64,000 nucleotides of DNA from Escherichia coli O127:H6 str. E2348/69. GTDB lineage: Bacteria > Pseudomonadota > Gammaproteobacteria > Enterobacterales > Enterobacteriaceae. The position numbers were made by a program. Location of the stretch: the NCBI RefSeq assembly GCF_000026545.1, contig NC_011601.1, one strand, 5' to 3'. Positions 1-3,000 of the stretch are shown here, in pieces. Position 1 is the stretch's first letter; each line of letters begins with the position of its first letter.

Positions 1-3000
1 CCCTCGCCACCTCTGATGTGTCAGGCATCCTCAACGCACCCGCACTTAACCCGCTTCGGCGGGTTTTGTTTTTTCCTGGCATTCTGGTTTACAATTCGCA
101 CGCCAGCCTGAACAACTGGCACCTGCTGCGCCAGCAGAGACAACCGATGGCGCACGATACCAAATTACACAATTCTGATGATTCTGCCGTCTTTGCCAGC
201 AGGCACGGGCGGCGTTCCCGCACTTTCAAATCTGACTGGTTCCAGCATCCCCCATGCACTGAAGAACAGGCCGAGTGGCTAATTCAGTGCTACCGCAGAC
301 ACGGATACGAGATTAAGAAAGCCCTCAGCCTCGATTATCGTCACTGGATAATCTCCGTCAGGCTTCCTTACTCCGAACGACCACCGCGTCCGTCCCGCAC
401 ATTCCAGCAACGCATCTGGAGGTAACGTGCGGGTATTACTTCGACCTGTTCTGGTACCGGAACTCGGGCTGGTGATCGTTAAGCCGGGCCGTGAATCCAT
501 GCCGGTATTCCACAATACCCGGGTACTGGTGGAGCCGGAACCGAAAAGCATGCGTAATCTGCCGTCCGGGGTCGTTCCTGCCGTTCGCCAGCCGCTGGCG
601 GAGGATAAATCATTACTGCCATTTTTCAGCGACGAACGAGTGATTCGTGCTGCTGGTGGCGCTGGCGCATTGTCTGACTGGTTACTGCGCCATGTTAAAT
701 CCTGCCAGTGGCCACACGGTGATTATCACCACAGTGAAACCGTCATTCACCGTTATGGTACCGGCGCAATGGTGTTGTGCTGGCACTGCGACAACCAGCT
801 GCGCGACCAGACCTCCGAATCACTCGGGCAACTTGCTCACCAAAACCTGTCTGCATGGATGATTGACGTCATACGCCATGCAATGAATGGCTCGCAGGAA
901 CGGGAATTATCGCTGGCTGAATTATCCTGGTGGGCGGTCCGCAATCAGGTGGCGGACGCGCTACCGGAAGCGGTATTACGTCGTTCGCTGGGGTTGCGTG
1001 CGGAAAAAATCCGCTCAATGTACCGTGAAAGCGACATCGTACCGGGAGAGCAGACCGCCACCAGCATACTGAAACAGCGCACAAAAAATCTTGCGCCGCT
1101 GCCTCACGCCCACCAGCAACAGAACCCACCACAGGAAAAGACGGTGGTCAGCATTGCCGTTGATCCTGAGTCTCCGGAATCTTTCATGAAACGACCTAAA
1201 CGTCGCCGCTGGGTTAACGAGAAATACACACGCTGGGTGAAGACACAGCCGTGTGCGTGTTGTGGTAAGCCAGCCGACGATCCCCATCACCTGATTGGTC
1301 ATGGTCAGGGCGGAATGGGGACAAAATCTCACGATATTTTCACGCTACCGCTGTGTCGGGAGCATCACAACGAGCTTCATGCGGATCCGCTGGCGTTCGA
1401 AGAAAAGCATGGTTCTCAGGTTGATTTAATTTTTCGTTTTCTTGATCACGCCTTTGCAACTGGCGTGCTTGGGTAAAAGAGGTGACTGATGCTCATAGAT
1501 TTGGTTTTACCTTACCCGCCGACGGTGAACACTTACTGGCGACGCCGTGGCAGCACATATTTTGTATCAAAAGTCGGTGAGCGTTATCGCCGTGATGTGG
1601 CGCTTATTGTTCGCCAGCAGCAACTGAAATTAAACCTGTCCGGAAGGCCGGCAATAGAAATTATTGCAGAGCCACCGGATAAGCGCCGTCGTGACCTGGA
1701 CAATATCCTGAAGGCACCACTGGATGTACTGACGCATGCGGGGCTGCTCATAGACGACGAGCAGTTTGATGAAATTAATATTGTGCGCGGTCAGCTTGTT
1801 CCTGGTGGGCGGTTGGGGATAAAAATCACAGAACTGGAGTATGCATGAATAACCAGTATTTACAGTTTGTTCGTGAGCAACTCATGATTGCCACCGCCGA
1901 TTTGAGTGGATCAACAAAAGGGCAGCTTGAGGCCTGGCAGGAGAATGCCATGTTTGATACAGGGCGTTACAGGCGTAAAAAAATCCGGTACCGCGATGAA
2001 GTGACTGGAAAAATGATAACGCGGGATAATCCACCAATCCCGGGAAAGCAATCGCTGGCGAAGGGGGCGTCAATTCCTCTCGTCAGTCCGGTTGAGTTTT
2101 TGACATCATCGTGGCGGCGGGCTGTTCTGTCTCTTGAAGAACATCATAAAGCCTGGTTGTTGTGGTGTTACAGCGGGAGTATTTGTTGGGAATATCAGAT
2201 CGCGATAACACAGTGGGCGTGGAATGAATTTAATACTCAATCCGGTACCAGAAAAATTGCTGGGAAAACGCAGGAACGCCTGAAAAAATTAATCTGGCTG
2301 GCGGCGCAGGCAGTAAAAGCAGAACTTTTTGGTGGGGAAGGTTATGAATATCAGGAGCTGGCATTACTGGCGGGAGTGACAACTAAAAACTGGTCCAAAA
2401 CATTTACTCGTCACTGGGTTGCAATGAAACACATTTTTCACCGACTGGATAGTGAGGCTTTATTATTTGTAATGAGAACACGTTCAAAACAAAAGGCGGC
2501 ATTTTCAAAGCAAAGTGTTGCAAAAGTAGATTGAAAGGCATATATTTCATGCAAATCTGATATTTTGCCGATTTTGTACGTGATGGCAAAATCAAACAAA
2601 ACCCGCCCACAAGCGGGTTTTTTTGTGCCACTTATCTCGGATAGACATGGTGAATGCGCTGGTGGAGGAGATAAGGGTGATTTTTGTATGCTTGCAACAT
2701 TGATTTCGTAACGTTATTATCCTGCGCCCGGCCCTTTAGCTCAGTGGTGAGAGCGAGCGACTCATAATCGCCAGGTCGCTGGTTCAAATCCAGCAAGGGC
2801 CACCAACCGCCACTAGCCATCAGGAAAGAGCGTCAACCCTTTAAGTTGAGTGTGCGAGGTTCGAGTCCCCGGTGGTGGTCCATTATCGGTATTCTGCGTT
2901 GTTAGCTCAGCAGGACAGAGCAATTGCCTTCTAAGCAATCGGTCACTGGTTCGACTCCAGTACAACGCGCTACACTTATTTTCCCGGCTCGCTTTTGCGG

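Follow-up and report, generated by a model that had tools for sequence, protein, structure and literature searches.

The question raised by the tRNA trio that lies downstream of the antiterminator gene Q in the lambdoid prophage of Escherichia coli O127:H6 E2348/69 is what its middle member, a gene at 2807–2882, might be: an earlier note, made from the sequence, had offered either a decaying tRNA or one with unusual decoding. The analysed stretch of DNA (64 kb, hereafter the window) was scanned with ARAGORN and holds exactly three tRNAs, all of them at the trio. The two flanking genes are as clean as the note had described them, with anticodons CAU and UCU, ARAGORN calls and Rfam scores of 72.5 and 68.1 bits. 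The middle gene is read here as a lineage-specific damaged copy of a distinct, Arg-derived prophage tRNA family with the anticodon UUU, the intact form of which may evade nucleases; this reading, taken whole, is given an even chance of being correct.

The middle gene was laid out as the cloverleaf CCGCCAC-UA-GCC-AUCAGGAAA-GAGC-G-UCAAC-CCUUUAA-GUUGA-GUGUG-CGAGG-UUCGAGU-CCCCG-GUGGUGG-U-CCA. In agreement with the earlier note, the CCA is encoded (2880–2882), the acceptor stem is good (7 bp, CCGCCAC/GUGGUGG, with a single wobble, G3:U70, at 2809/2876, and the discriminator U73), and the T loop, UUCGAGU, is normal; U8, A14 and G18G19 are retained. Also present, as had been noticed, are a T-stem mismatch, A51.C63 (2857/2869), which is common to nearly all UUU relatives of the gene (Lys-type alleles, below) and to one accepted argN allele, and the anticodon loop CCTTTAA (CCUUUAA in the RNA) with C at position 33. 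When this loop was checked against the canonical form, the stem, the 7-nt size and A37 were as expected, and position 33 was C, not U. The anticodon, which had been called ambiguous, is plainly UUU in a 7-nt loop closed by a 5-bp stem (UCAAC/GUUGA); it is called Lys by ARAGORN and is not an Arg anticodon. Other registers, with an 8-nt loop or a shifted stem, were not supported, the 5-bp UCAAC/GUUGA stem and the 7-nt loop being conserved, with compensatory changes.

The weakness of the D stem, also seen earlier, was traced to a 1-nt deletion that turns GCUC into GCC in the 5′ strand, so that GCC faces GAGC. The GG of the D loop is present, the canonical D stem of 3–4 bp is lacking, and the D stem contributes at most 0.3 kcal/mol whichever pairing is chosen in the evaluation of the cloverleaf energy, which gave −25.5 kcal/mol for the intact allele and −18.6 kcal/mol for the window copy. 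Minimum-free-energy folding was not used as evidence, since it returned no cloverleaf even for the good neighbouring tRNA(CAU).

In a 400-nt slice, the middle gene had no match to the Rfam tRNA model (RF00005), either at the gathering threshold (29 bits) or at E ≤ 10, and its only match in the clan was to tRNA-Sec at 15.7 bits (threshold 47). The base at window position 2806 (A; G in some alleles) is able to pair with U73 at 2879, giving an 8-bp acceptor helix, and this pairing probably explains why the tRNA-Sec model was the sole match. Scores of the tRNA model for alleles from the same position in other prophages were 56.4 bits for a UUG allele, 44.4 bits for the intact Lys allele, 43.0 bits for O157 argN, 37.0 bits for phage Evi and 33.3 bits for the M19 variant, with the neighbouring tRNAs of the compared arrays at 65–74 bits; the window allele and its one-mismatch relative B1_2 were both without a match to this model. 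The fall from 44 to below 16 bits was attributed to the D-stem deletion together with C70U in the window copy. In the RefSeq annotation of E2348/69, the tRNA-Ile and tRNA-Arg genes are annotated and the middle gene is left out. A standard high-scoring tRNA-Arg with a normal loop, the outcome that the earlier note had named as contrary to its description, did not emerge: ARAGORN gave tRNA-Lys(UUU), and both Rfam and the Prokaryotic Genome Annotation Pipeline (PGAP) rejected the gene. Since there is no model match, the cloverleaf is weakened and the D stem contributes next to nothing, the window copy is taken to be structurally impaired, and in translation it probably works poorly or not at all.

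A comparison with argN of other lambdoid prophages, which the earlier note had proposed, was run, and the middle gene was found to be homologous to argN, to share its slot, and to have the anticodon UUU. About 250 copies of the slot gene from IMG/VR and annotated genomes (62 distinct sequences) were then set against each other. On the slot backbone, the loop CUUCGAA (with minor variants) gives Arg UCG, the loops CUUCUAA and UUUCUAA give Arg UCU, CUUUGAA gives UUG (with a tRNA-Gln annotation in one Stx2 phage), and CCUUUAA, rarely ACUUUAA or UCUUUAA, gives UUU. Position 33 was C in every UUU copy sampled and U in every Arg copy. The slot of strain WP7-S18 holds a classical argN, a 77-nt tRNA-Arg(UCG), from which the window gene differs at about 17 positions, including compensated pairs (7:66 U-A to C-G, 27:43 C-G to U-A, 30:40 G-C to A-U), the loop (CUUCGAA to CCUUUAA) and the 1-nt deletion in the D-stem 5′ strand (GCUC to GCC). 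The D-stem deletion, U33C, the anticodon change and the compensatory stem changes were confirmed by 12-way and 61-way alignments. Since the intact Lys allele is identical to argN at 62/77 positions (80%) and to host lysT at 47/77, no more than generic tRNA similarity, it was classed as an Arg-type body with a Lys anticodon. The middle gene is thus no chance fold, as tRNAs 80% identical to it fill this slot in thousands of E. coli prophages.

When the cloverleaf was imposed on 61 distinct sequences, 96.6% of cells were paired, versus 29–54% with slid partners, and five pairs were changed on both sides; the compensated differences divide the argN clade from the UCU/Lys clade. This pattern indicates that the slot backbone evolved as a tRNA, and does not thereby show current selection on the Lys-type. 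The Arg(UCU) alleles L154, L235, L239 and L253 have the UCAAC/GUUGA anticodon stem and the CCGCCAC acceptor strand as in the Lys-type, and from these shared parts an Arg(UCU) origin of the Lys-type was drawn; in the simplest history, which is also the most likely one, the transitions U33C and C35U would have turned Arg(UCU) into UUU. A Lys-type gene with U33 was looked for in IMG/VR and none was found, the 11 pattern matches being unrelated tRNAs. The earlier suggestion of a decaying tRNA holds for the window copy, with its D-stem deletion and C70U, but not for the gene as a class, which is not simply a degenerate argN and forms a distinct, widespread group with a Lys anticodon; unusual decoding, the other suggestion, may apply if it is taken to mean a switch of the anticodon from Arg to Lys.

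Further alleles of the slot were recorded in the same comparison. In E. coli JNE151685, upstream of stx2A, a UUG allele on the argN backbone (L009, 302–378; tRNA-Gln according to PGAP) has a single C35U relative to argN(UCG), L223 has UCU on an argN stem, and L155 has the loop CUGCGAA. In O157:H7 strain 2571 and strain fS25a (L008 and L010, ~305–378), a 12-nt deletion removes the anticodon loop and there is an insertion in the T loop; these two alleles are plainly pseudogenes, and they show that decay of the slot has occurred independently in several lineages of prophages.

The 500-nt trio region had matches in 3,194 of 5,426 complete E. coli genomes, in which the flanking tRNAs are near-invariant and the middle slot is variable. 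A search was made with the middle gene alone, and records were split by the identity of the best match per record. The identical 88-nt stretch was present in 221 complete E. coli records (six 100%-identical records among the matches listed have no middle-gene tRNA annotated), a 95–99% identical version in 359 (tRNA-Lys by PGAP in nine gene-only records, at 96–97.5%, among the matches listed), and 90–95% versions in 192 (five among the matches listed were unannotated), and argN-type genes annotated as tRNA-Arg were found in ~1,400 records. Records of ‘PPompW’ prophages contain a sequence identical to the middle gene, entered by their submitters as tRNA-Lys. The C33-UUU frame gave 0 matches in 100,044 species-representative genomes, a result that says nothing on spread beyond E. 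coli strains. In the searchable literature, no paper was found with argN, ileZ and argO together, and the anticodon-arm sequence had no match; the Lys-type family is on record in annotations, but was not found discussed in that literature.

Lys-type genes commonly sit in an array ileZ(CAU)-Lys(UUU)-Thr(UGU)-Gly(UCC) in which the spacers are 1–3 nt long. The Thr and Gly genes of this array match K-12 thrU and glyT at 100% identity, and were for that reason regarded as recent captures of host genes. The four-gene array was seen in L003–L006 and in ~100 IMG/VR loci, and in L003 (E. coli EC12; 384–459 and 463–537) the Thr–Gly gap is 3 nt. The window array differs, in that the Lys-type gene is followed by an argO-like tRNA-Arg(UCU). 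Since the 3′ half of the window allele and its downstream flank (CGAGG...GUGGUGGUCCA-UUAUCGGUAUUCUGCG) match the argN allele of the O157 Stx2 phage L007, the window allele appears to have arisen by recombination of the two array types, and U70 seems, from the alleles compared, to be carried along with the flank on the argO side. More rarely, the D-stem deletion is also found in the thrU context with C70 (L073), and in phage Evi U70 is combined with an intact D stem.

The earlier note had counted C33 and the A.C mismatch of the T stem as damage, an interpretation that was given up, as they occur in nearly every sampled Lys-type copy (C33 invariably), including copies annotated as tRNA-Lys in PGAP and GenBank. 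In an unselected census, C33 was found in 24 of 1063 phage tRNAs (~2.3%, many specificities) and in 3 of 56 Lys(UUU) genes, and pattern scans for C33 returned 12 unrelated, well-formed phage tRNA-Lys genes and 17 phage tRNA-Thr(UGU) genes. A tRNA-Gly(UCC) control for C33 was uninformative, the matches listed being canonical tRNA-Trp. C33 is a low-frequency trait of phage tRNAs generally, and proves neither decay nor lysine-specific adaptation. The idea that C33 is a lysine-specific adaptation, for example against PrrC, was rejected, since it is found equally in Thr(UGU), in tRNA-Met and in the census. Two further groups came from IMG/VR: 71 of 121 pattern matches (L400–L519, e.g. L400, L402, L403) were initiator-like phage tRNA-Met with GGG/CCC anticodon stems and the loop CCCAUAA with C33, versus bacterial CUCAUAA, and three tRNA-Lys-like genes (L336, L342, L363) have a 6-nt loop, CUUUAA, with one U fewer than CUUUUAA, for which ARAGORN reports tRNA-??? 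with a 2-nt anticodon.

The long-standing explanation for the tRNA clusters of lambdoid and Shiga toxin (Stx) prophages is that they provide virulence genes with tRNAs for rare codons (AUA, AGA/AGG). A tRNA for lysine is at odds with this explanation, and since a single operon of E. coli K-12 already contains at least five tRNA-Lys(UUU) genes, there is no rare-codon reason for a prophage tRNA-Lys(UUU). PrrC, RloC and AriB target the anticodon UUU, which is a secondary target for P2 Old (PMC2610378, PMC12409363, PMC12445682). PrrC cuts 3′ of U33 (PMC2610378), and AriB of PARIS cuts between C40 and A41 in U36AAUC/A41, where U39A abolishes cleavage and the D loop is also needed; its other prime target is tRNA-Thr(UGU) (PMC12409363). 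For P2 Old, which brings about P2-lambda interference, thrU is the first tRNA to be destroyed and tRNA-Lys is cleaved as well, with CNG motifs in the anticodon stem involved (PMC12445682), and phage tRNA-Lys rescues cells from PrrC and from PARIS AriB (PMC11555353, PMC12445682). At these nuclease sites, the prophage gene has G39-U40-U41 versus host U39-C40-A41, no CNG in the anticodon stem, and C33 at the PrrC junction; its D loop differs from that of host tRNA-Lys, and its usual array partner is a copy of thrU.

Taken with this literature, the sequences suggest that the intact family may be a tRNA-Lys that PARIS, P2 Old and PrrC do not recognise. An Arg-to-Lys anticodon switch in the argN slot would have given UUU and C33 on an Arg body, lysyl-tRNA synthetase (LysRS) would, if the scheme holds, charge the intact allele through its UUU anticodon, and the intact family would then supply a tRNA-Lys with a body foreign to the nucleases that destroy host tRNA-Lys(UUU). 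The more elaborate proposal, that the body-swapped tRNA-Lys(UUU) and the captured thrU form a counter-defence cassette of temperate E. coli phages against PARIS AriB, P2 Old and PrrC/RloC, of which the window holds a recombinant, D-stem-deleted derivative, is put forward tentatively and is, as a complete account, unlikely.

A number of observations weigh against the reading as a damaged copy of a nuclease-evading family, and against the proposed cassette. The thrU copy of the arrays has the same sequence as the host gene, which is sensitive to the nucleases, the window array is without thrU, and C33, as a general trait of phage tRNAs, does not single out lysine. A bulged D stem of 3 bp might be tolerated, and the exact window allele is widespread. 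The discriminator is U73, while the unrelated phage C33 tRNA-Lys genes have A73; A73 is the discriminator used by LysRS and is found in real tRNA-Lys, and charging by LysRS is uncertain because U73 stands in its place. The family as a whole has C33 and the A51.C63 mismatch, which are signs of relaxed constraint. Diversity was taken as per-gene haplotype counts in 108 arrays sampled through the thrU junction, with the Lys gene unconstrained, whole-region alignment being distorted by mosaic flanks; the Lys slot was the most polymorphic of the array (21 haplotypes versus 11 for ileZ, 9 for thrU and 18 for glyT), and its frequent variants alter the conserved core (U8C, G18A) or delete part of the gene.

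Such variation would be accounted for if the whole Lys-type family were a dead argN or Arg(UCU) gene, inactivated by chance transitions in the anticodon loop (U33C, C35U) and the T stem (G51A), spread passively with useful neighbours and further decayed in the window, an alternative that is possible but somewhat unlikely. It draws on the polymorphism of the slot, with U8C in ~20% of copies, G18A or a deletion of the anticodon arm; on the frequency of the D-stem-deleted allele (221 records); on U73, C33 and the A.C mismatch, all unlike a good tRNA-Lys; on the 44 bits of the best allele in Rfam versus 65–74 for the neighbours; and on the lack of any U33-loop version in IMG/VR, as expected from a single ancestor. 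It is countered by the dominance of the intact haplotype, which is the commonest in the Lys slot (56 of 108 arrays), and by the pattern of the variants, in which, by our own count, most stem substitutions, mostly C-to-U, leave a G.U pair in place and a few bring back A51-U63. In addition, argN(UCG) alleles accepted by PGAP score no better (43 bits), C33 is found in many otherwise well-formed phage tRNAs, and glyT of the same arrays is nearly as polymorphic.

The remaining alternatives concern the window copy or its place in the transcript. That it is a working, if unusual, tRNA-Lys with a 3-bp D stem and a bulged A23, decoding AAA/AAG on induction or in the lysogen, is quite unlikely: it is called tRNA-Lys by ARAGORN, has kept its acceptor stem, the arms of the anticodon and the T loop, CCA, U8, A14 and G18G19, the gene lies inside an operon with promoter-like and terminator-like sites, and the exact sequence recurs in the 221 records and in the PPompW phage records annotated tRNA-Lys, but it has no Rfam tRNA match and is omitted by PGAP, its D stem is energetically negligible and its cloverleaf ~7 kcal/mol weaker than that of the intact allele, and the 221 identical records may reflect the recent spread of one prophage lineage, not selection. 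RNase P separates polycistronic E. coli tRNA transcripts, and the element could have been kept as a signal for this processing, an acceptor/T-arm minihelix with CCA that frees the 3′ end of tRNA(CAU) and separates tRNA-Arg(UCU). The short distance from the upstream tRNA (a 1-nt spacer in the window, 1–3 nt in related arrays) agrees with such a role, as does the persistence of acceptor stem, T arm and CCA in most variants (small numbers) while the D arm and core degrade; this role is nevertheless very unlikely, as the 12-nt-deletion alleles with a disturbed T loop persist in O157 prophages with their neighbours apparently kept, and the invariant UUU/C33 loop is left unexplained. Lastly, G3:U70 is the main alanine identity element for alanyl-tRNA synthetase (AlaRS), and its presence at 2809/2876, together with UUU and in distinction from the common Lys-type allele, could point to a mis-charging tRNA that is charged by AlaRS and inserts Ala at Lys codons. 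This is extremely improbable: the other alanine elements (A73, G2:C71) are not present, the tRNA core is damaged, U70 goes with the 3′ flank of the O157 argN allele and looks like a by-product of recombination, and Lys-to-Ala errors across the proteome would harm.

What follows depends on whether the Lys-type works. If it does, temperate phages, and not only large lytic ones such as T5, would carry replacement tRNAs against tRNA-cleaving defences, which are encoded on P2-like and P4-like elements of the same hosts, and resistance to nucleases would be quickly reached by switching the anticodon on a foreign tRNA body. If it does not, the tRNA-Lys calls in hundreds of E. coli genomes and hundreds of unannotated near-copies may be pseudogenes. 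In E2348/69 itself, the middle gene is probably crippled and is not to be counted as a third functional prophage tRNA.

The tRNA operon is placed in the Q/late-promoter region of the prophage, and the coordinates of its features are listed in the table. The sigma-70-like site lies 9 nt upstream of the first tRNA, is identical in sequence in arrays L002 and L003, and is the probable promoter of the tRNA operon; together with the terminator-like hairpin at the end of the operon, it suggests that the middle gene is probably co-transcribed with both healthy neighbours. At the end of Q, a further promoter-like site is a candidate pR′ by its position alone.

Features of the tRNA operon and its surroundings (window coordinates)
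Feature	Position	Strand	Basis
Antitermination protein Q gene	1845–2534	+	Open reading frame (ORF) list; RefSeq ‘bacteriophage antitermination protein Q’
Candidate late promoter pR′, promoter-like TTGCAA-17-TATATT, at the end of Q	2518–2546	+	Consensus scan
G+C-rich hairpin aaacccgcccacaagcgggttttttt, then T run, in the Q–tRNA interval; candidate tR′ terminator	2598–2625		Sequence and hairpin scan
Sigma-70 promoter-like TTGCAA-17-TATTAT, then G+C-rich stretch CCTGCGCCC	2692–2720	+	Consensus scan
tRNA with anticodon CAU, ileZ-like (PGAP: tRNA-Ile)	2730–2805	+	ARAGORN; Rfam; RefSeq
Middle gene: 76-nt tRNA-like, Lys-type (UUU, C33) argN-slot allele with D-stem deletion and G3:U70	2807–2882	+	ARAGORN
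D-stem 5′ strand, GCUC to GCC by 1-nt deletion relative to every intact relative	2816–2818	+	Alignments
Anticodon loop CCUUUAA: C32, C33 (2839), anticodon UUU (2840–2842), A37, A38	2838–2844	+	Sequence and ARAGORN
U70, giving the G3:U70 acceptor wobble; C70 in intact Lys-type alleles	2876	+	Alignments
tRNA-Arg(UCU), argO-like	2896–2970	+	ARAGORN; Rfam; RefSeq
Intrinsic-terminator-like hairpin GGCTCGCTTTTGCGGGCC, then T8, at the end of the tRNA operon	2986–3011	+	Scan
ISEc13 (IS4-like) transposase gene, just downstream of the tRNA operon	3111–4484	−	RefSeq and ORF list

The region 2600–3100 is 100% identical to the E2348/69 chromosome. Upstream of the trio, the prophage has hokD, a DUF968 gene, rusA and the Q gene, and downstream ISEc13, a DUF6645 gene, and lysis, head and tail genes. 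ISEc13 is not present in related prophages, and the end of this insertion sequence (IS) lies near 3095–3130, just past the operon terminator. It separates the Q/late-promoter region from the late genes (DUF6645 gene, holin, lysozyme), and its insertion may block Q-dependent late transcription. At its far end lie nleA, nleH1-2 and nleF, which are genes for type III effectors, and the element is an effector-carrying ‘exchangeable effector locus’ prophage. These genes, with an espO fragment and several IS/integrase pseudogenes, were located at NZ_CP059840.2 2683084–2689137, which corresponds to about 33,600–39,600 of the window by coordinate arithmetic. Gathering-level Rfam matches elsewhere in the window were STnc100 (4620–4796, + strand; within the prophage, just past the IS), STnc490 (41275–41398, − strand), STnc180 (62079–62281, + strand) and the trp operon leader (49552–49645, − strand), and because of the last of these the prophage was placed close to the trp operon.

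Among the closest known systems is argN, a tRNA-Arg(UCG) gene that belongs to the ileZ-argN-argO cluster found downstream of Q in lambdoid phages, those with Stx among them (so annotated in Stx2 phage records), and that occupies the same slot between the CAU and UCU tRNAs. The middle gene shares with it the body (62/77), the unusual first pair C1-G72, U73, the encoded CCA and the promoter region, and differs in its anticodon (UUU versus UCG), position 33 (C versus U), anticodon stem (UCAAC/GUUGA versus CCAGC/GCUGG), pair 7:66 (C-G versus U-A) and one D-stem nucleotide fewer. Also close, at ~97% identity to the window copy, are the intact genes called ‘tRNA-Lys’ by PGAP (E. coli EC12, Ecol_244 and others; also present in phages Evi and PhiR47_1), which agree with it in the loop CCUUUAA, in the anticodon stem and in the A51.C63 mismatch; unlike the window copy, they have 77 nt, a full 4-bp D stem, G3:C70 and 44 bits, and are followed by host-identical thrU and glyT, not by tRNA-Arg(UCU).

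Phage T5's PARIS-resistant tRNA-Lys(UUU) is likewise a mobile-element tRNA that has the anticodon of the nuclease target and differs from the host at positions 39–41, where T5 has A39-C40-C41 and the prophage gene G39-U40-U41. For T5 tRNA-Lys, resistance to AriB and rescue of infection have been shown experimentally (PMC11464382, PMC12409363). Unlike the T5 gene, the prophage gene has an Arg-derived body and U73, and the window copy is structurally damaged. In ‘remoulded’ (alloacceptor-shifted) tRNA genes, a duplicate tRNA gains the anticodon of another amino acid. The Lys-type resembles these in having an Arg-type body with a Lys anticodon, with UCU, UCG and UUG versions on the same backbone at the same locus, and differs from those of organellar and chromosomal sets in being part of a prophage tRNA operon.

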